Shown: piece by piece, positions 23,470 to 64,000 of the stretch
How the letters are laid out: each line of letters begins with the position of its first letter
Numbering within the stretch: position 1 is the first letter of the stretch
DNA from: an uncultured Gammaproteobacteria bacterium
GTDB lineage: Bacteria; Pseudomonadota; Gammaproteobacteria; Eutrophobiales; Eutrophobiaceae
Reading direction: 5' to 3'
Length of the DNA: 64,000 bases
Assembly: GCA_938084745.1 (NCBI GenBank)
Contig: CALKEZ010000006.1
Coordinates: 195,007-259,006, forward strand
Position numbers and translations under genes: made by a program
The notes under the pieces: generated by a model
The model's input: only the letters and a program-made list of their open reading frames with translations
Databases searched by the model: none
Told to the model about the DNA's origin: nothing

Positions 23470-25194
23470 TTGATCCTGGCCAATATCATTGCTGTTATCG
23501 CGACATTGGCCAGCGTTCCCGTTCCTTTGTTAATGCCATTACTGGTAGATGAAGTACTGCTGAATAAACCGGGGATTGTTGTTAACTTCATCAATAGTAT
23601 CACCCCCGCATTATGGCACAGCCCTGTGCTATACATTGTTTTTATTCTTATGCTGACGTTGTTATTACGCCTGATCGCATTAGTACTCAATGTATTTCAA
23701 ACGCGTCAATTTACGATTATTGCCAAGGATGTGATTTTCCTTATTCGTAAAACGCTATTATCGCGGCTTAACAGCGTGTCGATGTCAGAATATGAAACGC
23801 TGGGTAGCGGAACAGTAGCGTCATATTTTGTAACAGATCTGGCGACGGTGGATGACTTTGTTGGATCGACCGTCAGTAAACTATTAGTGGCTGTTCTGAC
23901 GATTATTGGCGTTGCCATAATATTACTCATCATGCATTGGCAAATGGCCCTGCTTATTTTATTTGCCAATCCCATTGTGATTTATTTCACCACGGTACTC
24001 GGAAAAAAGGTAAAAGAGCTTAAGAAAAACGAGAACTCCGCCTTTGCGATCTTTCAACAATCCTTGATCGAAACGCTTGATTCCATTCATCAGATACGCG
24101 CCAGCAATCGAGAAAAACACTATCTGAAACGCATTATAGAGCAGGCCAGTGCGGTGAAAGATCATGGTATTGCATTCGCCTGGAAAAGCGATGCCGCTAA
24201 CCGCCTGAGTTTTGTCGTGTTTCTGTTTGGCTTTGATATCTTTCGCGCAGTAGCGATGATGATGGTGGTGTTCTCCGGCCTGACGATAGGCCAGATGTTT
24301 GCGGTGTTTGGTTACCTCTGGTTCATGATGGGACCGGTTCAGGAAATACTGAATATTCAATATGCGTGTTACAGCGCGAAGGCTGCCTTGACGCGTATCA
24401 ATGTTTTGCTGAAGCTCGAGCAAGAACCCAGCTATCCGCATATTTTTAATCCGTTTGAAAATAAAAACACCGTTGGCATTACTATTTCTGATCTTCACTT
24501 TGCCTATGGCGATGGCCCGGATGTGTTGAATGGGATTAATCTTGATATTAAGCCAGGCGAGAAAATTGCGTTGGTTGGCGCAAGTGGCGGTGGCAAGTCT
24601 ACTCTCGTGCAGGTTTTAATCGGACTATACCCGCCCAAAAGTGGCACTATTTTCTATGATGAAACGCCTGTAACACAAATTGGCATGGATGTAGTACGAG
24701 AACATGTTGCTACTGTCTTACAAAACCCGGCGCTGTTTAACGACACCGTCAGAATCAATTTAACACTAGGCCGAGAGTTGGAAGATGCGCAATTGTGGCA
24801 TGCCCTTGAGATTGCACAATTGAAGGAAACCGTTGAGAAACTGCCGAATAAACTGGACACCATCGTCGGACGCCAGGGCGTTCGCTTATCAGGTGGGCAG
24901 CGACAACGACTGGCTATTGCCCGCATGGTCTTGAGTGAACCAAACGTCGTCATCCTTGATGAAGCTACGTCGGCTCTGGATGCGGAAACAGAATATCATT
25001 TGCATACTGCCCTTGCGGATTTTCTAAAGGACAAAACAACGATTATCGTTGCGCATAGACTCAGCGCCATTAAACAGGCTAACCATGTCTATGTTTTTGA
25101 GGCGGGGACTATTGGTGAACAAGGCACACATAAAGAACTACTCTCTCAGGATGGGCTGTATGCCAAGCTATATGGGGTGAGACAGTCCCACTAA
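23470..25194 (+). CDS. ABC exporter, fused permease/ATPase (MsbA-like type)
   Basis: It has six-TM N-terminal hydrophobic segments, Walker A (GASGGGKST), ABC signature (LSGGQRQR) and Walker B (VILDEATSALD). TTG at 23470 is the first canonical start, but the frame is open and protein-like back to 23347. Confidence 0.85.
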   Translation: MILANIIAVIATLASVPVPLLMPLLVDEVLLNKPGIVVNFINSITPALWHSPVLYIVFILMLTLLLRLIALVLNVFQTRQFTIIAKDVIFLIRKTLLSRLNSVSMSEYETLGSGTVASYFVTDLATVDDFVGSTVSKLLVAVLTIIGVAIILLIMHWQMALLILFANPIVIYFTTVLGKKVKELKKNENSAFAIFQQSLIETLDSIHQIRASNREKHYLKRIIEQASAVKDHGIAFAWKSDAANRLSFVVFLFGFDIFRAVAMMMVVFSGLTIGQMFAVFGYLWFMMGPVQEILNIQYACYSAKAALTRINVLLKLEQEPSYPHIFNPFENKNTVGITISDLHFAYGDGPDVLNGINLDIKPGEKIALVGASGGGKSTLVQVLIGLYPPKSGTIFYDETPVTQIGMDVVREHVATVLQNPALFNDTVRINLTLGRELEDAQLWHALEIAQLKETVEKLPNKLDTIVGRQGVRLSGGQRQRLAIARMVLSEPNVVILDEATSALDAETEYHLHTALADFLKDKTTIIVAHRLSAIKQANHVYVFEAGTIGEQGTHKELLSQDGLYAKLYGVRQSH

Positions 25195-33699: not shown

Positions 33700-34248
33700 T
33701 CAGATTTTGCCATCCAACCCCATCTGGTAGTATTTATGAATGATGTCTTCCTGGTTCTCTAATAACCAATCAATATCCGGTTCATTATTCATCGCTTTAT
33801 GAATCGCCATCGTTGTTGCCTTCCGATGGATATCGAACAGTATCTTGTGATCCAGATCATCTGCCTTGGCAACCAACGGATTTAGCCAAACAGAAACGAT
33901 AATACCCAAATCATTAGCTTTTTCTTTAGGAATATCACCATTTCTAACAGCATCAAGTACGCCATTTGCGATTGCACCTTGCACAGTACCCATCAGAATA
34001 TTGGTATAGCGTTCTTTGTTAACCGTCACTTTACTGACCATTAATGTTGCCGGTTTAACCATAATATCGGTATTCATGATTGCCAGAACACGTGAGTGCC
34101 CTTTTACCTGATCGCCAATCAAGGTTGCAAAGGCATTTCCAACAGGTCCATCAAGCTCACCAATAACAACCTCAGGTTCTGCGGCTGTACCTGGAGGGCC
34201 CCCGGCAACTAATGCTTCACCTACACGCATAACGATACGATCACTCAT
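33700..34248 (-). CDS. fae: Formaldehyde-activating-enzyme (Fae) family protein
   Basis: 182-aa ORF with Fae-like layout and length (VGEALVAGG...VVIGELDGPVGNAF...KPATLMVSKVTVN...GTVQGAIANGVLDAV..G.IP). I cannot tell whether it is Fae proper or a Fae2/3-type paralog. Confidence 0.75.
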   Translation of the reverse strand: MSDRIVMRVGEALVAGGPPGTAAEPEVVIGELDGPVGNAFATLIGDQVKGHSRVLAIMNTDIMVKPATLMVSKVTVNKERYTNILMGTVQGAIANGVLDAVRNGDIPKEKANDLGIIVSVWLNPLVAKADDLDHKILFDIHRKATTMAIHKAMNNEPDIDWLLENQEDIIHKYYQMGLDGKI

Positions 34249-34341
34249 ATTTTTTTTCTCCCTAGAAAGGTTAAAGATTTAATGATAAGAATAAACAGGA
34301 AATACATTTAAAAGAGACAAAATCAGACATGACGTCAAAAT

Positions 34342-36801
34342 TTAACTGTCTTTGTCTCCTAATTGCTTGGATATATCAGCCAGTAAATCATTGTTTGCAG
34401 CAGCCGCTTTTTGTTTCGCCTGCATTGCTTTTTCCCTGATACGTTTCATATGATCAGCAGTCATCTGAATTTGAGTAACTGATGCTGCTTCTTCTTGTTG
34501 TTTGTCTTCGAAATCAGCCAGATCATTACTTATTCTAGCCAGCCATTCCGCTTCTTGTTGTTTCTTTTTAATCAAATCTGCTTCAACCTCGTGTTGTGCA
34601 GATTCTGTTAATTTTTCCCTATGAATTGCATCTTCAATCTCTCGTTCCGCTTCATAGACTTTCTCTTCTACCGCTTTGATCTCGACTTCTATTTTGTCAC
34701 GTTCTATTTTTGAACTAGTAGATTCCATTTGCTTTTCTTTCAAGGCAGAAGCTTCTTCTAATGCTTCTCGTTTGATCTGTTCTGCTTCCAGCTTGGCTTG
34801 CTGGATTTGTTTCATTGTTTCCTGTATTTTTTTCGCTTCCTCTTCCAGTTTCAAACGCTCTGCTTTTAGTTTTGCTTCTTCTTCAGCACGCGTTTTGTCA
34901 TGCGATGTTTTATATTCCTGAATTATCTTTTCTGCTTCTTCCTTGGCAGCAGCACGCGCGGCTTCGGCAGCAGCCTTTTCTTTTTGCAGGTTTTCAAATT
35001 CCTTGTTATTACGATCATATTGTTCGGCCAGTTTTTTACGTTCCTGCTCAATCTTGACTTTAACTTCAGCTTGTAACTTTCTTTCCCGCGCCTCGTCTTC
35101 TATTTTTTTCTTTTCAGCTTGCTCTTCAAGCAGCTTCCTTGATGCCTCGACCTCAGCAAGTATTTTTTTGGATTCAGCAACTTCCTGCTTGATACGTTCA
35201 GCTTCTTCTAATTGTTTCCTGGCCACTTCTGCTTGCTGTTCCAGTTTCTCGCGCTCTTTACGTATCGCTTCCTCAGCCTCTGCCTTGGCTTTTTGAAGTT
35301 TTTCCATCTCCATGGCATTGTTGTTATAAATCTCTTCAAGTTTCTTTTGTTCAGCTTCCATCTGCGCATCAGCTTCTTGCTTGAGCTTTTTAAGTTTTAA
35401 CTCCTCTTCCGCAGCTTTCTTTTTGGATTCTGCTTCAGCTGCTTTTTTCTGTGCTTCTAATGCTTTTCTTTCTTCCAGTAATTGCTGTTGAGCTGCTTCA
35501 TAGGCTTTTTTCTTTTCCGCATCGGACTCATCTGTTGATGCTTTGGCTTTTTCCATCCTGATTTGTGTTGTTTCAAGTTCAGCATTAAGCATCTCGACTT
35601 TAACGTCGGCATCGTCATCTTCCACCTGACTGACAGGTTCAGCTTCAGGTCTGGTTTCAACTTTGATTTTCGTCTCGGCCGGTTTTGGTGCCTCTGGTGT
35701 TTTAGCTGCGCTGGTGGTTTCAACAAGAGCTTCAGAATTATTTACCAGGCCACCTTCAAGATAAGAAACGGTGTAACCACGTTCAGCTAACAAAAAAGCG
35801 CCGGTGGAACTGCGACTCCCGGTATCGCAATAAAGGATATAATTGCCCGCCGGATCCAGTTTATCTGTATGCAGGCGTAGAGAGTTTAGCGGGATATTTA
35901 TACTTCCCTTAATTGATGATTCCTGAAATTCATTTGGAAATCGTACATCCAGCCATATTGCGCCTTCATTCACCAATGCCGATGCATCGGCGAAGCTTAA
36001 TGATTGTAATGTCGGTTTTTTGATCAGTTCTATGAAGGTCTCTTTTGCAAGTTGCATCAAAACACCATCAGTTATCATGGTCACTGTCGCATTTCGTTTT
36101 GCACTCGAGATCAAGGCCTCTTCGCCGAAGCTGTCACCCGTTGTTAACTCAGCCAGTTTGACATCATTACTTGTCGGCGTCGGTCTTCTTGAAACCGCAC
36201 ATCGCCCCTCAGAAATGATGTAATAATTCTCGCCAATTTCACCTTGTGAGATGACAACATCTCCGGCCTTGAATTCTATCGGCTCCAACAAGGCAAACAG
36301 CTGATGAATATTTGCCATCGGCATCCGGGAAAAGAGTTCCGATTGCAACATCTGCGTCATCCAGTCGGCATCATCATCATCAACACCATCGACCTCATCG
36401 ACTTCCATATCAGCACCCGAGCCAGTCGGTTCTACCGTTGCTTCCTGAGCCAGTAACATTAACTGGTCGAGATTATTACGTTCGATCAGCAGGATTTTGA
36501 GTGGTGTTTTAGCCTTTGCGGAATATTGTCGTGGTTGCAACTGTGCCAGGGCATATTTAGCCCGGTCACTACCGCTTTTAATAACGCTGTCGAGCTGATC
36601 ATTCGCATATAATTCAATTTCACCATCGATGAGATAATAGGAATAATTATCTCTATCACCTTGATTGAAGATGTAGCGGGACTTTTTGACCTCCAGGATT
36701 TGGGCGCTTTTTAGCAACCTTGCCTGAAGATTCGCAGGTAATTCATTGATCGGTATGAGTTCTCTAACCTGTTGTTGCAGTTGATCGTTGGCTTCTGACA
36801 T
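34342..36801 (-). CDS. Two cyclic-nucleotide-binding domains + rhodanese domain + ~410-aa E/K/A-rich helical tail
   Basis: 819-aa ORF. The cNMP-like barrels are at about aa 20-115 and aa 160-262 (GDSFGEEALISSAKRNATV). The rhodanese domain is at aa ~272-352 with active-site loop YCDTGSRSS (Cys325, nt 35827-35829). From about aa 400 (nt 34345-35604) the sequence is charged coiled-coil or single-helix-like. Confidence 0.8.
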   Translation of the reverse strand: MSEANDQLQQQVRELIPINELPANLQARLLKSAQILEVKKSRYIFNQGDRDNYSYYLIDGEIELYANDQLDSVIKSGSDRAKYALAQLQPRQYSAKAKTPLKILLIERNNLDQLMLLAQEATVEPTGSGADMEVDEVDGVDDDDADWMTQMLQSELFSRMPMANIHQLFALLEPIEFKAGDVVISQGEIGENYYIISEGRCAVSRRPTPTSNDVKLAELTTGDSFGEEALISSAKRNATVTMITDGVLMQLAKETFIELIKKPTLQSLSFADASALVNEGAIWLDVRFPNEFQESSIKGSINIPLNSLRLHTDKLDPAGNYILYCDTGSRSSTGAFLLAERGYTVSYLEGGLVNNSEALVETTSAAKTPEAPKPAETKIKVETRPEAEPVSQVEDDDADVKVEMLNAELETTQIRMEKAKASTDESDAEKKKAYEAAQQQLLEERKALEAQKKAAEAESKKKAAEEELKLKKLKQEADAQMEAEQKKLEEIYNNNAMEMEKLQKAKAEAEEAIRKEREKLEQQAEVARKQLEEAERIKQEVAESKKILAEVEASRKLLEEQAEKKKIEDEARERKLQAEVKVKIEQERKKLAEQYDRNNKEFENLQKEKAAAEAARAAAKEEAEKIIQEYKTSHDKTRAEEEAKLKAERLKLEEEAKKIQETMKQIQQAKLEAEQIKREALEEASALKEKQMESTSSKIERDKIEVEIKAVEEKVYEAEREIEDAIHREKLTESAQHEVEADLIKKKQQEAEWLARISNDLADFEDKQQEEAASVTQIQMTADHMKRIREKAMQAKQKAAAANNDLLADISKQLGDKDS

Positions 36802-52130: not shown

Positions 52131-52781
52131 TTAAATTATCAGCGCGTACATTGCGTGTTGAAACCCGTCAATTATTGGCCCGATTATTTTAAACAAGACG
52201 CCACTGGCCAATAAGACAACGAGGATGATTAAACCATAAGGTTCAAGTTTTGCGTAACGAGAAGCGATGGGTTCGGGCAATAGTGAAAAAACTACACGGC
52301 TGCCATCTAATGGCGGCAAAGGAAAAAGATTAAGAATCATTAATAAACTATTAATGACAATTCCCGCCCATGCCATCAAGGTTAAAATATGTGCAGTCCA
52401 GTTACCTTGATCTGCTGCTGTTATAAACAGTTTTGCAATGATCAACCAGAACATGATCATGAGTAAATTTGCCGCAGGACCGGCCAGGGCAACTAAGGCA
52501 ATATCACGCTTGGTATTTTTCAATCGATTCCAGTTTACGGGTACCGGTTTAGCCCAACCAAATATAAAGCCACTGGCAAAAAACATGATTAATGGAACTG
52601 CAATGGTGCCTACAGGATCGATATGTTTTAACGGATTAACCGAAAGCCGCCCCATATCTTTTGCAGTGGTATCGCCGAGCAAACTGGCAACCCAACCATG
52701 ACTTACTTCGTGCAGGGTGATAGCAAACAGTACCGGGATACTCCAGATCAATATTTGATAAGCTGTGGACAGTTCAGACAT
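52131..52781 (-). CDS. Site-2-protease (M50) family membrane metalloprotease, short form
   Basis: 216-aa polytopic ORF with an HExxH in a TM helix (LHEVSHGW) and a downstream LFPLPPLDG motif. Confidence 0.8.
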   Translation of the reverse strand: MSELSTAYQILIWSIPVLFAITLHEVSHGWVASLLGDTTAKDMGRLSVNPLKHIDPVGTIAVPLIMFFASGFIFGWAKPVPVNWNRLKNTKRDIALVALAGPAANLLMIMFWLIIAKLFITAADQGNWTAHILTLMAWAGIVINSLLMILNLFPLPPLDGSRVVFSLLPEPIASRYAKLEPYGLIILVVLLASGVLFKIIGPIIDGFQHAMYALII

Positions 52782-57236: not shown

Positions 57237-57587
57237 TTAATTAATATGATCTGTATTCAGGTAATCATTTTGACTATCTGCAATAGATTCCTCATGTTGC
57301 TTTACAACACGAACAACAACAATGGAATCACGATAGAAATCTGAATGTATCGGTACCCGTACCTTTATAGCAGCACGTTCACCACCTCTGCCGTCAGCAT
57401 AAATAATAACGTCGTCAACATTTAAAAATCGCGAATTATATTCCATTCGACCATCTTCATAGACCAATAATATATTGTCTAATGCCGATGATTCGACAAC
57501 ATTATTAACGGGTTGAGTAGAGGTACAAGCCGTATTTAACAAACAGCAAGTGACAATTACTAAGGCATGTGAAATATATTTATTCAT
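57237..57587 (-). CDS. Hypothetical lipoprotein
   Basis: 116-aa ORF with a lipobox (CLLNTAC). No family recognised. The region is AT-rich. Confidence 0.55.
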   Translation of the reverse strand: MNKYISHALVIVTCCLLNTACTSTQPVNNVVESSALDNILLVYEDGRMEYNSRFLNVDDVIIYADGRGGERAAIKVRVPIHSDFYRDSIVVVRVVKQHEESIADSQNDYLNTDHIN

Positions 57588-57819
57588 AATAGTTTACATA
57601 TAGTTATGTGATTAACTTAAACTATATAATAAATATAAAAAAATGGTGTGGACTAAATCACACTATGGTTTATCTACATGAGAACCAGATCTCGTTTTTC
57701 ACTTATTTAAGTGTGACTCAGGTAATATTGTCGTCAGAAATTCTGCCTGAGTATGCTGCCAGAATCATCAATAAGATAAAAACCTTAATTAAAGCTTATG
57801 AGTTTAATCAGTTATTAAA

Positions 57820-59946
57820 TCAAAAACCGGATTCCCTTATAAAAACAGCCGCGACTAATTTATAAGCTCGCTTAAGATAACTTTCGGGATCGCTCTGGAC
57901 ATGGACTACACCACGTATTTCCTGTTCAGCTTTTGCCTCTTCGACCAAACTCATCTCAAATCGTACCCGATACTCAGACTTGTCCGGTACGAGCTTTTGC
58001 AATTCATTCATTGTGACCGGAACTTTACCGCCATAAACAGATGCGATCTCATCCATATCGAAGGTCTGTAAATTAGCGCTTTCGATTTCTCTGACGTAGC
58101 CCCAAACGGAATCAAGCTCAGGGTTATCCGGGATAAATTTTGCGCTAGCCAACAACATGATTCGGGATAATTGTGCCTCTGAAACTACGCCGTCAAAAGT
58201 TGCTCTGACCGGATCAACAACTGTTGCCAGGGGTAATGTTTTATTAATCCAGCGCTTCGCATGCAGTGATTCGTGCACATCATAAACCACACCACTAATA
58301 GGCGCGCGGATTACAAGTTTGTTTTTTTGTTCGAGCAGACCGTTCAACCTTGATCGACTTTCCTGTAACTGCTTAACGATTATCTGGACATTAGACAGTT
58401 CTTCCAGGCTCGCAGCTATCCTTCTGGCCTGCAATTGTAAAATCTCTATTTCCTTTAGCGTAATATCAATTTTGTGTTCCAGCTTTGGTGATCGTAAAAC
58501 CAGTAAAATATCATTTGCTTCAACATATTCATTTTCGCGAATAAAATTGCTTTCAATGTAACCTGGCGCCGAGGCAAATAGAGTAGCCTTTGAACCGCTT
58601 TTAAATACAGCAGGTACTTTAATTGATGTGCCCCATGGGAAAATAACGACTCCCAACAAAACAATGAATATTAACGAAGTAATATAGAAACGTTTTGTTT
58701 TAATAATTTTAGTCCTCATTTCCCACCAACTCCTTATTAACCCGATCACAGGTAAAATTATAAACCAGAGAATTTCTATCAAGAATAAAATGATGCCCAG
58801 TAATTTAAAAAAGAAATAATAGACAAGTATGGCAATACCAATAAACAGGAAGAATCGATACACCCACACGCACCATGCATAAAGGTATAGCTTCTTAAGC
58901 ATTGCGGATGGTAGTGCTTCTGGTGGCCTTAAGTTTAGCCCAAACAGGATTTCAGTTAACTTCCATTTTCCCACATCAAACGAACGCTTCTGTAGATTCT
59001 GGATGCCGAGTAGATCTGAAAAGATATAATAACCATCAAAGCGCATCAGAATATTTGAGTTAATCGCTAGCGATAGTATCCAGCTTGTTGTCGCCATGAT
59101 AAAAGCAGCGCTTTTTAATATGCCATCAGGCAGAAAACCCCAGCAAAATGTGGCAATACAGGCAATATACAATTCCATTATCATACCCGCCGCACCGACA
59201 TGTGCACGCTCCAGAGCAGAGCGTATACGCCAGGTATCGGATGTGTCCGTGTATAAAATAGGAAACATCACCAGTAGAGCCACACCCATGGTCGGAACCT
59301 TGCAGCCGTAGCGAACGGTTGTATAGGCATGTGCAAGTTCATGCAAAATTTTTATAACAACAAGCGAAACGAAATAGAATGCGAGACCTTGCAGATTAAA
59401 AAAATAGAGGAATGTAGAGGTAAAACTATCCCATTGCCGGCCAACGATATAAAGACCGATTAAACCGACGAGCAAAACCAGTGCTGTTGTAGTTGCAGAG
59501 AATAGCGGTTCTACATAGACGAGTGTTTTTCTAAGAAATGATGTTGGCTTCACTAAAGGGATCTTTATAAAAAGATAGTTATGTATCAACCACATCAAAA
59601 AGCCAGGTTTACTGGCTAAATACTGCTCGAGATAATCATTGCTTGAGCCGCTGGTTGGCTCGAGTGTCAAACTATTACCATAGAGAAATGATAATAAGCT
59701 TTGTACATCTTCTTTGCGGACATCAAGTGTTGTTTCTTTTTTTACCCGATCCAGAAGTATACTTGCTTTACCAACAGACCATCTCGAAAGCAATTGAAAT
59801 GCAGTCCAGCCAATTGAAAAATATTTATTTCTGACTGGATCAAATATTATCCAGCTAGGCGAGCCATCCAGTGCCACTGCACCTTCGAGTAGATGTAGAT
59901 CATGACGTAATACCGGCAGAACAATATCTTGTTCAGTCTCATTCAT
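57820..59946 (-). CDS. Fusion protein: PqqD/RRE-like N-domain + M50 (S2P-like) membrane metalloprotease + C-terminal HlyD-type membrane-fusion domain
   Basis: 708-aa ORF. HELAH lies in a TM helix (nt 59329-59343), with a downstream NILMRFDGYY motif and multiple TM helices up to about aa 435. The rest is a barrel-sandwich/coiled-coil MFP-like part (FASAPGYIE...ANDILLVLRSPKLEHKI...APISGVVYDV). Confidence 0.75.
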   Translation of the reverse strand: MNETEQDIVLPVLRHDLHLLEGAVALDGSPSWIIFDPVRNKYFSIGWTAFQLLSRWSVGKASILLDRVKKETTLDVRKEDVQSLLSFLYGNSLTLEPTSGSSNDYLEQYLASKPGFLMWLIHNYLFIKIPLVKPTSFLRKTLVYVEPLFSATTTALVLLVGLIGLYIVGRQWDSFTSTFLYFFNLQGLAFYFVSLVVIKILHELAHAYTTVRYGCKVPTMGVALLVMFPILYTDTSDTWRIRSALERAHVGAAGMIMELYIACIATFCWGFLPDGILKSAAFIMATTSWILSLAINSNILMRFDGYYIFSDLLGIQNLQKRSFDVGKWKLTEILFGLNLRPPEALPSAMLKKLYLYAWCVWVYRFFLFIGIAILVYYFFFKLLGIILFLIEILWFIILPVIGLIRSWWEMRTKIIKTKRFYITSLIFIVLLGVVIFPWGTSIKVPAVFKSGSKATLFASAPGYIESNFIRENEYVEANDILLVLRSPKLEHKIDITLKEIEILQLQARRIAASLEELSNVQIIVKQLQESRSRLNGLLEQKNKLVIRAPISGVVYDVHESLHAKRWINKTLPLATVVDPVRATFDGVVSEAQLSRIMLLASAKFIPDNPELDSVWGYVREIESANLQTFDMDEIASVYGGKVPVTMNELQKLVPDKSEYRVRFEMSLVEEAKAEQEIRGVVHVQSDPESYLKRAYKLVAAVFIRESGF

Positions 59947-61298
59947 ATTCCGAATAATTGTCGAACGTATGAGATGGGACGTCTAAACATATAAAAGAAT
60001 AAGGAAACACGTTCACCGAATATCTTGGCCGTACCTTGTAAACCTATTCTCAATTTATTGTTTTTTATTTGATCAAATTCTGCATAGACCCTGTAAGAAA
60101 GAGTATCCTGATCATATTTTTCTGCTTTATAACTCGACTTGGTCACCGTGGCCTTTATCGGTGACAAAGGATAGGCATCCAGAAAGACTTCCACTTCTGC
60201 GCCTTCTTTTAGTACGATAGCATCATCAATTGAGAGATTTATTTTTAGTTGTATTTGTTCTGTATCGGCAATTTCCATGACTCTCTCACCAACCTGAACC
60301 GGTTTACCAATCCAGTCGGATATATCTGTGTAAATTAACAAACCACTTTTTTCTGCTGTAACATTAATTTTTTCAAGCAATTCAGCTGTGAATTCGGCTT
60401 TGCTTCGATACAGTTCTGTTTGTGCTCTTAGATAAGAAATTTGAGCCTTACTCTTGGCATCCTTAAATGCGCCTTGTGCTGCCTTTCGGTATTCTGCTTC
60501 CGCAACTTCCGTGGTCTTTTTAGCCACGTTATATTCATTGCGTAAATTGGTATCTTCAAGCACAAACAGCACATCACCCTCAACCACCCGCGTATTGGGC
60601 GGAAAGTCTATCTCAGCAATAACGCCATCCATAGGTGAACTCACAATAACAGGCTGTTTTGCTGTAATTTCTGCGGGGGCCAAAGCTGAAAGCTTTATCG
60701 GCTTTATAAAAACCCCGAGTAAAAAAACAACAATAATCCATACCGCAACGGTAACTTTCTTCGGACGATGGTAGAGCCTTCTTTTACTTGTGATAGCGAC
60801 CTGAGCATGCGCATAGGTCTCACCGAGTCGCTTGAACAAGGCAAGCTCATTATCACGCCAGGGCGTCTCTCTAGTGACCCAAAGGCCGCCAATAAAAGTC
60901 CCATCGGGCAATTTTAAAGGCGTCCATAAACCGAAAGGTAATGAAAACTCTTTCCAGCCTTCCTTCAGATTCTCTGGACATTGCGTCTCATCGATCAATC
61001 GCTGGGTAGCAATAGTATCGCTGTCAAACAGACTTTTAAGTGTCTTTTCCAACCATGATGCAAAAGGGGCGTGTTTTTCGATAACGGCCACACTTGATGC
61101 ACAAACAAGTTTGCAGTCTCGTTGTATAGGATGTGATGATAAAAACAAATACGCTTGTCTATAAGGTAACAAACGGCGCGTCTCGTTTACGATCATAAAA
61201 TAAAGCGCATCTGCCGACGGTGCCGCACGCGCCATAGACTCTAACTGGAGTAATTTTGATACTGCCGCAAGTTCTGTTCCTTGAGTTTCTGTTGCCAT
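59943..61298 (-). CDS. Membrane-fusion (HlyD-family) protein with cytoplasmic GAF-like N-domain
   Basis: 451-aa ORF that overlaps the next gene by 4 nt. About 170 aa at the N-terminus are GAF-like (LYFMIVNETRRLLPYRQAYLFL...FGLWTPLKLPDGTFIGGLWVTRETPW). One TM helix follows (VAVWIIVVFLLGVFI), then an HlyD-like part (SSPMDGVIAEIDFPPNTRVVEGDVLFVLED plus coiled coil). Confidence 0.7.
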   Translation of the reverse strand: MATETQGTELAAVSKLLQLESMARAAPSADALYFMIVNETRRLLPYRQAYLFLSSHPIQRDCKLVCASSVAVIEKHAPFASWLEKTLKSLFDSDTIATQRLIDETQCPENLKEGWKEFSLPFGLWTPLKLPDGTFIGGLWVTRETPWRDNELALFKRLGETYAHAQVAITSKRRLYHRPKKVTVAVWIIVVFLLGVFIKPIKLSALAPAEITAKQPVIVSSPMDGVIAEIDFPPNTRVVEGDVLFVLEDTNLRNEYNVAKKTTEVAEAEYRKAAQGAFKDAKSKAQISYLRAQTELYRSKAEFTAELLEKINVTAEKSGLLIYTDISDWIGKPVQVGERVMEIADTEQIQLKINLSIDDAIVLKEGAEVEVFLDAYPLSPIKATVTKSSYKAEKYDQDTLSYRVYAEFDQIKNNKLRIGLQGTAKIFGERVSLFFYMFRRPISYVRQLFGI

Positions 61299-61300
61299 AA

Positions 61301-62077
61301 TTAATTATTGTTTTTATTGAATTGCGCGGTACCGCTCATCCCGGAAAGAACCTCTTCAATATCATCATCAAATTTGCCGGTCAGTTTTATCGTCTGGCTA
61401 ACAGGATCGACGACGGCGCCTATCTTTGCGACTTTGGCATCGAGTATCTTTCCTGTTTCATCAATGATAAATGAAAACGGTTCGCCGACCTTCAACCAGT
61501 TTAACCAGTTGGAAGGAACGATTAATTCTATTTCCAAATCACGGTCATTAAGTATCGACAAAATCTCCCTGTCTACGGGGACCGTCTCATGCTCATTAAT
61601 GGCGACTTCAATCACGCGACCGCTGTAAGGTGCCTTGATTTTACATTGATTCACACGTATCGCTTTCATCGTACGATCGGCTCTTGCTACCTGCATTTCC
61701 GATTTCGATATAGAAACATCTATATCGCTAATAGCGTTTAACGCCAGTAACTCTTTATTGTTCTCATAGATATGTTTTCTGGATTGATATGCCGCATCTG
61801 CCGAGGCCAAATCAGCACGATAAAAGGAGCACTCAAAACCGACCAACACATCACCTTTTTTAAAACGATCACCAGACTTGAAGGGTAACTCATCTATTTT
61901 TGCAGCAATTTCACTTGATATAACCGCTCTGTCGACCGGTTTTATTAGCCCCCTAACATTGTCTGCAACAATTCCCGTAGAGAAAAAATCATCTTCTTCA
62001 GCATATCCAGCCTGAATTCCGGTAAAGATAAATAATAAAAGAGTTAGCGTCTGAATATTCATAACATTAACGTTCAT
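61301..62077 (-). CDS. Short periplasmic adaptor (membrane-fusion/biotin-lipoyl-like) protein
   Basis: 258-aa ORF with a signal peptide and MFP-type lipoyl and beta-barrel segments (ISSEIAAKIDELPFKSGDRFKKGDVLVGFE, APYSGRVIEVAINEHETV). Confidence 0.7.
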   Translation of the reverse strand: MNVNVMNIQTLTLLLFIFTGIQAGYAEEDDFFSTGIVADNVRGLIKPVDRAVISSEIAAKIDELPFKSGDRFKKGDVLVGFECSFYRADLASADAAYQSRKHIYENNKELLALNAISDIDVSISKSEMQVARADRTMKAIRVNQCKIKAPYSGRVIEVAINEHETVPVDREILSILNDRDLEIELIVPSNWLNWLKVGEPFSFIIDETGKILDAKVAKIGAVVDPVSQTIKLTGKFDDDIEEVLSGMSGTAQFNKNNN

Positions 62078-62092
62078 TCAAAATCTCCAAAA

Positions 62093-63595
62093 CTATTCAA
62101 TCTTCATGGAAAAAAGTTGTTCGTGTAAGGACAACCCTTCGAAATATTTCATTATAGAATCTGTTAATGAACTCACACTATCCGTATCGGCATCAATTGG
62201 AAAAGGATCAATTCCTAACGATGCAAAAATACCCGCATAAGCATTTTCGACATCCGAGTAAGCTATGTCATATTTTATCTCGGCAACCATCATATTCATT
62301 TCTTCTCTTATCAGTGATTGTTCAGTCACGGTGTTTTTAGCCACACCTGAGCGTAATTGGTCGAGTATTTTTTGCTGAGTTAAATAGTAGTCCGCTGCTG
62401 TTTTATATTCGCGTTGTGCGTGTTCATATTGAGCCAGGCTTACATGTACCTGAGTCATAATCGCCATGGTTAATGCCAGACGTCTGGCTTCCAGCACATT
62501 TTCTCTTGCGCCCAACTCCCTTTTTGTTGCCGGTAATTTGAAGATATTGAGAAGATTCCAGCTGACCTGAGTACCATAACTCAACCAATTATTATTAAAC
62601 AGGAATGAGTTGCTGCTATAACTTTTACCAAAATTAATATCCAGACCTGGCAATAAACTTAAAATCGCTGCCTTGGCTTCTTTCTTGTTAATCCTTTCTT
62701 CATAAGAGATAGTCCTTATCTCTGGCCTGTTCTCAAGTGCAATTTGCTCCATCATTTCTGGCGAGATATCAACCTTATCAACAATGTCACCACGATCAGG
62801 AATCACTAGCTGATAACTCTCACCGGGGCGTAGATTCATAAGCGCAGCAAGCTGAATTTTTGCTAACGATAAATCTCGTTGCAGCGCCTCAAGCTCGCGT
62901 TTAATCCCAATTAATTCGCGTTGATAGGTTAATGCCGTTAAAGGACGCTCCAGGCGTTTCTTTTCGACTTGTTTGGATTCTTCTATCGCTTGGGAAACGC
63001 GCACTAATAACGCTTCAAGTTTTACAATTAACCGATCATTACTGACAGCACGCCAATAGGCAGTTCTGACATCTTGCACCATACGATTAACGACTTTTCT
63101 TTTTTCTTCTTCCGCAATAAGTACTTTGTCAGCAGCTTGCTTGGCTCTTATGTATGACAAACCAAAATCAAGCACATTCCAGGTCAATGACAAATCAGCA
63201 TTGAAAATGTCACGATTAGATGAGGTCGAAGTCGATAATGACTGTAGGCCTGTTAGTAAAGATTGGCTGGAAGCACCGCTAAAATTATCACGGCCATTAT
63301 AACCGGACTTGGCAACGAGTTGTGGCAATAACTCATAACGAGAAAGATCCAGTTCTGTTTGAGACAGAATTTTTTCTGCAAACTCAAGATGAAAATCGAG
63401 ATTATATTTCAATGCGCGCGCAATGGATTCATACAGCGTAATGGGTTCGACCACAGGATCCTGATTCCATGTAATCAAAACACTATCATTACTCGCCTGG
63501 GCTTTTAATTCGTCATGCGTCAACGGCACCGGAATAAAAGCACACCCCGATACGAGTAAGCATAAAACGACAATATAACAACGGTATTGCATCAT
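62093..63595 (-). CDS. TolC-family outer-membrane factor lipoprotein
   Basis: 500-aa ORF with a lipobox (LLVSGCAF) and the two-fold repeated helical/beta OEP architecture typical of NodT/TolC proteins. Confidence 0.85.
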   Translation of the reverse strand: MMQYRCYIVVLCLLVSGCAFIPVPLTHDELKAQASNDSVLITWNQDPVVEPITLYESIARALKYNLDFHLEFAEKILSQTELDLSRYELLPQLVAKSGYNGRDNFSGASSQSLLTGLQSLSTSTSSNRDIFNADLSLTWNVLDFGLSYIRAKQAADKVLIAEEEKRKVVNRMVQDVRTAYWRAVSNDRLIVKLEALLVRVSQAIEESKQVEKKRLERPLTALTYQRELIGIKRELEALQRDLSLAKIQLAALMNLRPGESYQLVIPDRGDIVDKVDISPEMMEQIALENRPEIRTISYEERINKKEAKAAILSLLPGLDINFGKSYSSNSFLFNNNWLSYGTQVSWNLLNIFKLPATKRELGARENVLEARRLALTMAIMTQVHVSLAQYEHAQREYKTAADYYLTQQKILDQLRSGVAKNTVTEQSLIREEMNMMVAEIKYDIAYSDVENAYAGIFASLGIDPFPIDADTDSVSSLTDSIMKYFEGLSLHEQLFSMKIE

Positions 63596-63732: not shown

Positions 63733-64000
63733 CTAGTTAATTAATGCTTTTCTTATCTCGTCTGTTAAATTATCAAACTTAATGGCTTCTTTATCTATTT
63801 GATGCTCGAATAAACTTGCGCCTGCAATAAACTCATCACCGATCTGTTCCAATGCTGCAATTTCGCCACTATTCACATTCACATCAACATACCTGACGAT
63901 CACCGTACCATCACTTAAGGTGACTTCAATACGCAATTCAACTGCGTCTGTTCCTATCGGTGGTTCACCACTGACCAAGCCACCGTTATCATCAATTCGT
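63733..64000 (-). CDS. 3' end of a gene continuing beyond the window (unassigned; possibly a large secreted protein)
   Basis: The frame is open to nt 64000 (..RIDDNGGLVSGEPPIGTDAVELRIEVTLSDGTVIVRYVDVNVNSGE...). The tracked GTG start is probably an artifact of the window edge. It ends 137 nt upstream of the TolC-like gene on the same strand. Confidence 0.5.
   Translation of the reverse strand, partial: RIDDNGGLVSGEPPIGTDAVELRIEVTLSDGTVIVRYVDVNVNSGEIAALEQIGDEFIAGASLFEHQIDKEAIKFDNLTDEIRKALIN

Follow-up and report, generated by a model that had tools for sequence, protein, structure and literature searches.

In the daptide pathway, whose gene clusters were discovered through the recognition element (RRE) domains of peptides made by ribosomes and modified after translation (RiPPs), removal of the leader has been assigned to MpaP, an intramembrane peptidase that depends on an RRE (Ren et al. 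2023, PMC10036551). MpaP consists of an RRE fused N-terminally to a site-2 protease (S2P), and the leader is proposed to be removed at the membrane (PMC10036551). For EpeP, an M50 protease from the epipeptide pathway, a double role in cleaving and exporting its peptide has been suggested (PMC10885120). Here we describe a gene for a 708-aa protein, located in a stretch of 64,000 nt (the window) from contig CALKEZ010000006.1 of an uncultured gammaproteobacterium (assembly GCA_938084745.1), whose product combines an RRE-like domain and an M50/S2P core with a periplasmic adaptor of the HlyD type. Because MpaP has already been described, the RRE plus S2P half of this fusion is of a known kind. Four closely spaced minus-strand genes end with this one, and we regard as an even call the proposal that its product is the inner-membrane core of an envelope-spanning four-gene cassette which serves an adjacent giant adhesin-like protein. 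The protein, as translated from the open reading frame (ORF), starts with MNETEQDIVLPVLRHDL, in agreement with the residues quoted in a first-pass annotation of the window. The gene and the parts of its product are as follows; TM1 to TM7 are transmembrane helices, AF2 is AlphaFold2, and MFP stands for membrane fusion protein.

57820-59946, minus strand: gene of the 708-aa RRE-like/M50 (site-2-type)/periplasmic-adaptor fusion protein (ORF, Pfam and NCBIfam matches, AF2)
59662-59919, minus strand: aa 10-95, predicted cytoplasmic RRE/PqqD-like winged-helix domain (AF2, Foldseek, hhalign via a distant homolog)
59008-59499, minus strand: aa 150-313, M50/S2P catalytic core with TM1-TM4 and a re-entrant beta-hairpin at aa 220-233 (profile matches, AF2)
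59329-59343, minus strand: HELAH (H202, E203, H206), zinc-binding and catalytic motif within TM2 (translation, invariance)
59032-59061, minus strand: N296-x7-D304-G305, second S2P motif with the third zinc ligand (invariance; spacing of the S2P motif)
58639-58908, minus strand: aa 347-436, extra helices TM5-TM7, predicted to lead the chain to the periplasm (AF2 helices, hydropathy, positive-inside counts)
57823-58638, minus strand: aa 437-708, MFP/HlyD-type periplasmic adaptor with an alpha-hairpin at aa 487-542 (HlyD_3, Foldseek, profile matches)

The HELAH motif (aa 202-206) lies within a hydrophobic helix of the AF2 model (aa 185-212), and the sequence NILMRFDGYY occupies aa 298-307. All 36 close homologs and all 74 diverged sequences, the latter sharing 27-43% identity with the query, retain H202, E203, H206, N296, D304 and G305, and Y306 is likewise invariant in the homolog alignments. 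The spacing N296-x7-D304-G305 is that of the classical "NxxPxxxLDG" second motif of proteases of the S2P/RseP type. Since the HExxH and N-x7-DG residues are invariant, the active site is intact. The first-pass annotation had proposed that the M50 core retains HELAH and NILMRFDGYY; both are present in the protein, and their residues H202, E203, H206, D304 and G305 are kept throughout the 74 homologs. The Pfam model Peptidase_M50 (PF02163) matched the protein with an E-value of 4.9e-6 and 26.5 bits, just under its gathering cut-off of 27.2 bits, which is passed by the homologs from E. coli (34.7) and Azospirillum (30.8). The NCBIfam model of the daptide intramembrane metalloprotease (NF041824, daptide_HExxH) gave an E-value of 1.1e-34 and 120.3 bits versus a cut-off of 300; homologs matched it with E-values of 1e-43 to 1e-51, the match reaching into the N-terminal domain. 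Judged by these profile scores, the nearest curated family of the fusion protein is the daptide RRE-S2P peptidase MpaP, but the protein is not a member of the daptide equivalog. Weak matches to NF058609 (YydH/LiaK) occurred in homologs. When the family profile was compared with the PDB, MjS2P (3b4r) was matched at an E-value of 0.003 over aa 192-230, around the HExxH helix, while a Foldseek search with the full-length model, dominated by adaptor matches, returned nothing on the protease core.

Two independent AF2 runs, one on aa 1-118 (predicted local distance difference test, pLDDT, of 77.2) and one on the full chain (pLDDT 81.6, built from the alignment of 36 sequences), gave the same elements for the N-terminal domain, namely strands at aa 18-21, 32-36 and 41-45 followed by helices at aa 47-54, 61-71 and 78-90. 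In a Foldseek comparison of the N-domain model with 350,542 PDB chains, ranks 1 to 6 were held exclusively by the RRE proteins TbiB1, a lasso-peptide RRE, and CteB, an RRE-bearing sactisynthase. Three TbiB1 chains (5v1v/5v1u) were matched with E-values of 0.015-0.027, a probability of 1.0 and target-normalised template-modelling scores of 0.65-0.68; the CteB matches were 5wgg/5why, and SuiB appeared at rank 36. Because the E-values are modest, the resemblance of the modelled domain to RREs is a match at the level of the fold, not proof of homology. A Pfam scan of the N-domain at E-values up to 10 gave no match, PqqD (PF05402) included, and no RRE emerged from the family-profile search of all PDB sequences. 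PqqD was touched by one of 48 diverse N-domains of the family, at an E-value of 0.05; by these profile searches, the domain is not a sequence-level member of Pfam PqqD. Using hhalign, the family profile of the 48 N-domains was found to be colinear with the PqqD-positive N-domain of a Pseudosulfitobacter homolog (P 1.2e-4, probability 55%). The N-domain is among the best-conserved parts of the fusion protein in both the 36 and the 74 homologs. The initial assignment of aa ~10-95 to an RRE/winged-helix-like domain is thus upheld by the three-strand/three-helix AF2 fold and by six top Foldseek ranks that are all RREs, with Pfam PqqD remaining silent.

Hydropathy and the AF2 model indicate seven transmembrane segments (aa 150-170, 186-208, 246-271, 276-296, 350-378, 381-403 and 418-436), of which TM2 carries HELAH and TM4 leads into N296..D304-G305; the AF2 helices corresponding to TM5-TM7 span aa 347-378, 381-409 and 418-435. 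Averaged over the 36 homologs, the predicted cytoplasmic loops 209-245, 297-349 and 404-417 contain 4.5, 6.4 and 3.3 lysine plus arginine residues, and the predicted periplasmic loops 171-185, 272-275 and 379-380 contain 0.08, 0 and 0. Seven helices together with this positive-inside pattern locate the N-domain on the cytoplasmic side and aa 437-708 in the periplasm, the arrangement that the first-pass annotation had wanted confirmed; neither of the two outcomes it had named as refuting, an N-domain without RRE or winged-helix similarity and a cytoplasmic MFP-like part, was observed. Its count of "about six further TM helices", in contrast, was too high, since there are seven in all, five of which follow the HExxH helix and three of which lie beyond the M50 core. 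RseP has its HExxH helix oriented from outside to inside; with the corresponding helix oriented likewise here, the active site is expected near the cytoplasmic face.

The C-terminal part, aa 437-708, comprises 272 residues, in agreement with the "last ~270 aa" that had been described as MFP-like. The AF2 model shows an alpha-hairpin (aa 487-509/514-542) plus strands resembling those of beta-barrel and lipoyl domains, and Foldseek matched this MacA/EmrA-like fold to MacA, EmrA, MexA, AcrA and ZneB in the PDB with E-values of about 1e-12 to 1e-9. The family profile matched MacA/MexA and HlyD chains at about 1e-8, and HlyD_3 (32.1 bits versus a cut-off of 22.2) is the sole Pfam family above threshold in the 708-aa protein. 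RRE-like, M50 and adaptor domains do reside in a single chain, as had been suggested, and this full-length architecture is kept in the homologs.

The cassette reads, in the direction of transcription, TolC-like factor, short adaptor, GAF-adaptor and RRE-M50-adaptor. The further features of the locus are:

62093-63595, minus strand: TolC-like outer-membrane factor, 500 aa, opening the cassette (two repeats of Pfam OEP, E 1.8e-36)
61301-62077, minus strand: short periplasmic adaptor, 258 aa, with an N-terminal signal-like sequence (RND_mfp 110 bits, HlyD_3)
59943-61298, minus strand: GAF-adaptor, 451 aa, with a cytoplasmic GAF-like domain, one transmembrane helix and an MFP domain (Pfam HlyD_3 and HlyD_D23)
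63733-64000, minus strand: C-terminal 88 codons of a giant repeat protein, the proposed substrate, continuing past the window edge (frame open to the edge)
57646-57663, minus strand: terminator-like hairpin plus T-run about 160 nt past the stop of the fusion gene, possible end of the operon (consensus scan only)

The stop codon of the GAF-adaptor gene overlaps the start codon of the fusion gene (ATGA). The GAF match of the 451-aa protein is weak (E 0.006), and that of its Pseudosulfitobacter homolog is above the Pfam threshold. Pfam and NCBIfam scans revealed no ABC, RND or MFS transporter among the four cassette genes. A gene for a 116-aa lipoprotein-like protein (57237-57587, minus strand) follows directly after the cassette and keeps its position in the close gammaproteobacterial lineage with 48-67% identity; the Pfam scan assigned it to no family, and in Azospirillum the corresponding place is taken by an "RT0821/Lpp0805 family surface protein".

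Proteins related to the fusion protein are widespread, far beyond what chance would produce. More than 4400 proteins match at E-values up to 1e-5, those among the matches listed being full-length (700-720 aa), and at least 563 species-level genomes (one genome scanned per species) encode a full-length relative. The genomes with a relative belong to Gammaproteobacteria, Nitrospira (among them Ca. N. defluvii), Hyphomicrobium, Ahrensia, Novispirillum and Planctomycetota. The N-domain profile matched 1325 clusters at 50% identity, 914 of them at E-values up to 1e-10; no other architecture was encountered, the clusters among the matches listed being either about 700 aa in length or short fragments. 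Megaplasmids or chromids carry the gene in Azospirillum, Variovorax, Tistrella, Magnetospirillum and Cupriavidus metallidurans CH34, and plasmids carry it in E. coli, Citrobacter and Hafnia; among 5426 complete E. coli genomes, 24 carry the M50-adaptor gene, at least 99% identical and on plasmids. The complete system, that is, a leader-bearing giant of 3668 aa plus the four cassette genes, is carried by IncHI1B-type plasmids in E. coli, Citrobacter and Hafnia, and in the E. coli G5 plasmid (NZ_CP060066.1, 20836-38214; loci L144/L146) it is flanked by IS1/IS5 elements. Public databases list the homologs as "HlyD family efflux transporter periplasmic adaptor subunit", "site-2 protease family protein" or "biotin/lipoyl-binding protein", and the source databases name the protein "putative peptide zinc metalloprotease protein", a name of the YydH type.

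The cassette genes keep their order in some 120 loci, which come from Gamma- and Alphaproteobacteria, from Nitrospirota and from Planctomycetota, as well as on the Azospirillum and E. coli plasmids. This applies to essentially every locus long enough to show the order, and in nearly all of them the OEP/TolC-like gene belongs to the same operon. Clustering of all flanking ORFs of at least 30 aa did not reveal a conserved short ORF; the only clusters that cross clades are the giant gene, reverse-strand ORFs, which are taken to be artefacts of the giant-gene repeats, and one mostly Nitrospira cluster of upstream ORFs of about 130 aa. Peptide-modifying enzymes (radical SAM, YcaO, lanthipeptide) were absent from the scanned neighbours, and neither aminotransferase, decarboxylase and methyltransferase genes nor short precursors ending in Thr were found nearby. 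The flanks lack a conserved ATPase, annotated candidates being lineage-specific (PAS kinases, GGDEF, AAA, sporadic ABC, PBP1). Neighbouring ABC genes are sporadic only (L013, L016), and a SecA-like gene is absent from all cassette loci and present only in the Pseudosulfitobacter variant described below. The annotated flanks contain no gene for an anti-sigma factor or an extracytoplasmic function (ECF) sigma factor.

Some neighbours recur within lineages. Nitrospira cassettes are adjoined by genes for PAS histidine kinases and a PAS-GGDEF cyclase (L028 16746-18659, L042 19353-20879), and several Alphaproteobacteria have a conserved AAA ATPase of 634-639 aa about 2.4 kb downstream (L074 14555-16474). 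Small DUF3467 proteins, of which the window has none, recur divergently upstream of the TolC-like gene in Nitrospira cassettes; such a protein may be a dedicated cytoplasmic partner.

L018 5592-5906, L019, L020, L023-L025, L027, L059 and L061, minus strand: DUF3467 genes upstream of the TolC-like gene

The association with a giant protein was scored over 121 cassette loci. In 43 of these, an ORF carrying a characteristic leader motif begins downstream on the same strand, at a distance of 93-1705 bp, and in ten such an ORF lies divergently upstream, while 33 loci have a long same-strand open frame which runs from the edge of the locus and ends just before the TolC-like gene. The flank was too short for scoring in 32 loci. 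Three well-flanked loci were scored as lacking a giant, yet one of them (L130) has an upstream ORF of 3276 aa. The leader of the downstream ORFs, as read from the 43 loci, consists of the initial M, a K/R-rich patch, some 20-35 residues and the motif (S/A)LL(S/A)LE(P/S/Q)R(I/L/M)(M/A/V)FD(G/A)AAxAT, and a basic patch followed by the core (S/A)LExR(I/L/M)x(F/L)D(G/A)AA is seen on the giants wherever the N-terminus is readable. Examples are the upstream giant of Azospirillum Az39, annotated with DUF4347, whose N-terminus reads MMARKRGS...MFAMALEPRFMFDAAGA and contains the motif MALEPRFMFDAAGA, and the 3668-aa giant of the E. coli G5 plasmid with the N-terminus MTTIKNRRLRPRAHRFALESRQLFDGAALAE and the motif FALESRQLFDGAA. 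The giants carry DUF4347 plus cadherin or Ig repeats; in the 2063-aa giant of Ca. N. defluvii, DUF4347 (aa 145-309) is followed by cadherin and Big_9 repeats. The LEPR-XLL model NF012209, which has a cut-off of 17 bits, gave 15.3 and 14.6 bits or no match with giants of the cassette loci. By its motif, the leader of these giants is LEPR-XLL-like, a relative of the NCBIfam LEPR-XLL N-terminal domain.

For the giant encoded at the edge of the window, the 88 available residues are 73% identical to the C-terminus of an ORF of at least 1804 aa in the syntenic loci L006/L104, and its C-terminal domain is shared with a leader-bearing alphaproteobacterial giant (L065). Only short fragments were matched by the 88-aa C-terminal fragment or by a profile of the C-terminal domain, the contigs retrieved for the 708-aa protein were no longer than 6 kb, the outer-membrane factor was not on record, and contigs from metagenomes of the close lineage end within the giant gene. 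Because the N-terminus lies beyond the window edge, the presence of the leader at this locus is deduced from homologs. The giants show two conserved types of C-terminal end. In those of Nitrospira (L019, L028, L038, L040, L042), a hydrophobic stretch precedes PAWRHFDPLPVL and a basic tail, and those of proteobacteria share a domain of about 90 aa with the pattern LPxW...PP.G...SGEI. Either end could be a sorting or secretion signal.

Window 63733-63999, L006, L009, L016, L060, L065, L073 and L074: giants with the C-terminal domain of about 90 aa

A diverged version of the system is encoded on a Pseudosulfitobacter plasmid.

L145 (NZ_CP085155.1, 75469-94893) and also L147: Pseudosulfitobacter variant cluster

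This cluster encodes a giant, a DUF3467 protein, a GAF-adaptor, a PqqD-M50-adaptor and a SecA-like ATPase. The 716-aa homolog of the fusion protein shares 26% identity with it (BLAST E 5e-48), and the two align colinearly between helix 3 of the N-domain and the hairpin of the adaptor. It is annotated as "PqqD family peptide modification chaperone", matches Pfam PqqD with 26.8 bits versus a cut-off of 23.4, and is covered by the daptide protease model from position 1. The giant of the variant comprises 12,737 aa with Ig domains and has a canonical LEPR-XLL N-terminus (LETFEPRVLLSAD, 33.2 bits). The gene of the SecA-like ATPase (660 aa) overlaps the M50 gene by 8 nt and is translationally coupled to it. 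The Pseudosulfitobacter cluster and the main cassette are therefore two diverged machines, each of which pairs an RRE-type/M50/adaptor protein with a LEPR-tagged giant.

In the working model, the cytoplasmic RRE-like domain would capture the N-terminal leader of the giant in the way in which RREs capture RiPP leaders, which are bound as an extra strand between strand 3 and helix 3, and in which MpaP has been proposed to act on daptide precursors, and the M50 site would cut off the leader at the membrane surface, near the cytoplasmic face. The three adaptor-type proteins and the TolC-like protein would form a duct, with the giant being passed to, or held at, the cell surface, and the GAF domain would probably gate the process in response to a small ligand. 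The ligand of the RRE-like domain is likely the leader of the neighbouring giant rather than a small peptide; this candidate was identified from the gene neighbourhood only. In view of the SecA-like ATPase whose gene immediately follows the M50 gene in the variant, a motor that is of the Sec type or encoded separately, acting from the cytoplasmic side, is plausible.

Several observations weigh against this model. The cassette encodes no energy source. The RRE assignment derives from a model of medium confidence (pLDDT 77) and Foldseek E-values of 0.015-0.08, with negative results in Pfam PqqD and PDB sequence searches. The giant of the window is cut at the window edge, so that its leader is deduced from homologs. 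The leader is too weakly hydrophobic for a classical transmembrane substrate of an S2P. Moreover, a C-terminal domain is conserved among the proteobacterial giants, and RTX repeats occur in one of them; the giants could therefore exit by a type I system that is encoded elsewhere and recognizes a C-terminal signal.

The last point leads to a different sequence of events, which we consider rather unlikely: the giant would leave C-terminus first via such a type I system and stay threaded in the adaptor/TolC duct, displayed on the surface, its leader being held by the RRE-like domain until a signal perceived by the GAF domain triggers the M50 cut and shedding, comparable to LapD/LapG-LapA but at the inner membrane. 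Besides the shared domain of about 90 aa and the RTX repeats of at least one proteobacterial giant, the lack of a motor in the cassette, the fusion of a GAF domain to one of the adaptors, and the GGDEF and PAS histidine-kinase genes adjoining some Nitrospira cassettes would fit such regulated release, and (G/A)AA in the leader is reminiscent of the di-alanine site of LapG. However, no ABC transporter is consistently nearby, the C-terminus of the Nitrospira giants is of the different, hydrophobic type, and the coupling of the M50 gene to a SecA-like ATPase in the variant suggests translocation led by the N-terminus. The protein might otherwise mature and export a RiPP or bacteriocin, cleaving the leader of a small peptide encoded elsewhere and handing the peptide to the TolC duct. 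This idea, which is closest to the wording of the first-pass annotation, could draw on the daptide protease as the best curated hidden Markov model, on the YydH/LiaK matches in homologs, on the RRE fold of the N-domain and on the YydH-type database name. We nevertheless think it improbable, since no precursor or tailoring genes are conserved: the flanks lack a conserved short ORF, peptide-modifying enzymes are missing from the scanned neighbours, and the daptide model reaches 120 of the required 300 bits.

Most characterised bacterial S2Ps, such as RseP and SpoIVFB, act in signalling. By analogy, the M50 site could cut a membrane-tethered regulator, with the N-domain having a regulatory or DNA-binding role, as winged-helix folds often bind DNA, and the adaptor sensing a TolC-dependent machine. 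Yet anti-sigma and ECF sigma genes are absent from the annotated flanks, the best structural matches of the N-domain are RREs rather than DNA-binding winged helices, and the fact that its translation is strictly coupled to that of two adaptors and a TolC-like protein favours a structural role in a conduit; regulated intramembrane proteolysis is thus very improbable in our view. To the last alternative, an ordinary efflux adaptor whose N-terminal two thirds are a mere membrane anchor, we give hardly any credence: the names given to homologs by the Prokaryotic Genome Annotation Pipeline and the fact that HlyD_3 alone exceeds its Pfam threshold would agree with it, but HExxH and N-x7-DG are invariant over 74 diverged sequences, the N-domain is well conserved, and there is no pump gene for an adaptor to serve.

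Elsewhere in the window, a stand-alone 216-aa membrane protease of the M50/S2P type with an HEVSHG motif is encoded 5 kb from the cassette (52131-52781, minus strand); it appears to be unrelated to it. A 574-aa ABC exporter (23470-25194) was considered as a member of the system and dropped, being more than 30 kb away among unrelated genes. The 2-kb bin 34001-36000 has a strong AT skew (-0.31) and belongs to an ORF of 819 aa whose domains are of the cyclic-nucleotide-binding and rhodanese types; a search for tandem repeats in this interval was negative.

The most far-reaching form of the proposal is one that we put somewhat below an even chance. In it, the cassette would be an undescribed, widespread dedicated pathway for giant surface proteins, occurring from Nitrospira to E. 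coli plasmids, in which an RRE fold reads a LEPR-XLL-type leader, the fused zinc protease removes that leader, and a three-adaptor TolC duct operates without an ABC transporter in the cassette. On that reading, the N-domain would be the first RiPP leader-recognition module for a secretion substrate of several thousand residues, and the cassette would represent a new class of envelope-spanning secretion or anchoring machine. Full-text literature searches yielded no functional description and no account of the adaptor fusion, of an ABC-less TolC cassette or of a link to LEPR/DUF4347 giants, an absence which does not prove that none exists; an apparent "M50" match in a review of tripartite pumps proved to be residue M507. 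RREs are a hallmark of RiPPs and a handle for genome mining, and here the same fold, together with a protease of the MpaP kind, has apparently been recruited for giant adhesin-like proteins. If the pairing of leader and RRE-like domain holds true, it would provide a function for the LEPR-XLL/LExRxxFD tag and for the DUF4347-type giants, explain a very common gene annotated generically as "HlyD family", and define a TolC-dependent system with a protease instead of a pump as inner-membrane component; RRE-based mining would then also pick up loci that are not RiPP clusters. Because E. coli plasmids and cultivable Azospirillum carry the system, it is directly testable.

Among secretion systems, peptidase-containing ABC transporters working with a HlyD-type adaptor and TolC in the type I export of bacteriocins and microcins (e.g. 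CvaAB-TolC) embody the concept proposed here, in which an N-terminal leader is recognized and cut on the cytoplasmic side in physical connection with an adaptor/TolC duct. Their peptidase is of the C39 cysteine type and fused to the ABC transporter, with a separate adaptor, whereas in the present case it is the adaptor that carries the peptidase, a zinc S2P, no ATPase belongs to the cassette and the presumed cargo runs to thousands of residues. The LapA/LapE/LapG/LapD system resembles the present one in its giant repeat adhesin, TolC-like pore, N-terminal proteolysis (proposed in the present case) and small-ligand-sensing domain, but LapG is a periplasmic cysteine protease, LapD a cyclic di-GMP receptor and export occurs via the LapBC ABC/MFP pair, and there is no homology. 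With MacA, EmrA, HlyD and AcrA, the C-terminal 272 aa share the hairpin, lipoyl and beta-barrel elements and the TolC-like gene alongside; these adaptors have a single transmembrane or lipid anchor and serve an ABC, RND or MFS pump, whereas here the anchor is a protease with seven transmembrane helices and a pump is not encoded. The cassette thus differs from tripartite efflux and type I secretion systems in having no energised inner-membrane transporter.

With canonical S2Ps, such as RseP (with PDZ domains), SpoIVFB (CBS) and MjS2P (3B4R), the protein shares HExxH in a transmembrane helix, the N-x7-DG motif, a re-entrant beta-hairpin after the HExxH helix and an extramembrane domain for substrate selection, a role that is putative here; unlike in these, the accessory domain has a cytoplasmic RRE fold and the chain is covalently joined to a periplasmic adaptor. 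EpeP/YydH, TglG and TmoG are, like it, M50 intramembrane proteases and process ribosomal peptides of the epipeptide and pearlin pathways, but the similarity is distant and none of them has been reported with a fused RRE or adaptor or with a TolC-type duct. MpaP has the same order of an N-terminal RRE-type domain and an M50/S2P core as the 708-aa protein. It differs in having neither TM5-TM7 nor the C-terminal adaptor, and in belonging to RiPP clusters of Gram-positive bacteria, in which tailoring enzymes accompany short precursors (leader motif ELExMEAP), where the present locus has TolC and adaptor genes and a giant. From its sequence, the fusion protein is best described as an MpaP-type RRE-S2P protease that is extended by three transmembrane helices and a periplasmic adaptor and encoded, next to LEPR-tagged giant surface proteins, in a pump-less TolC cassette.

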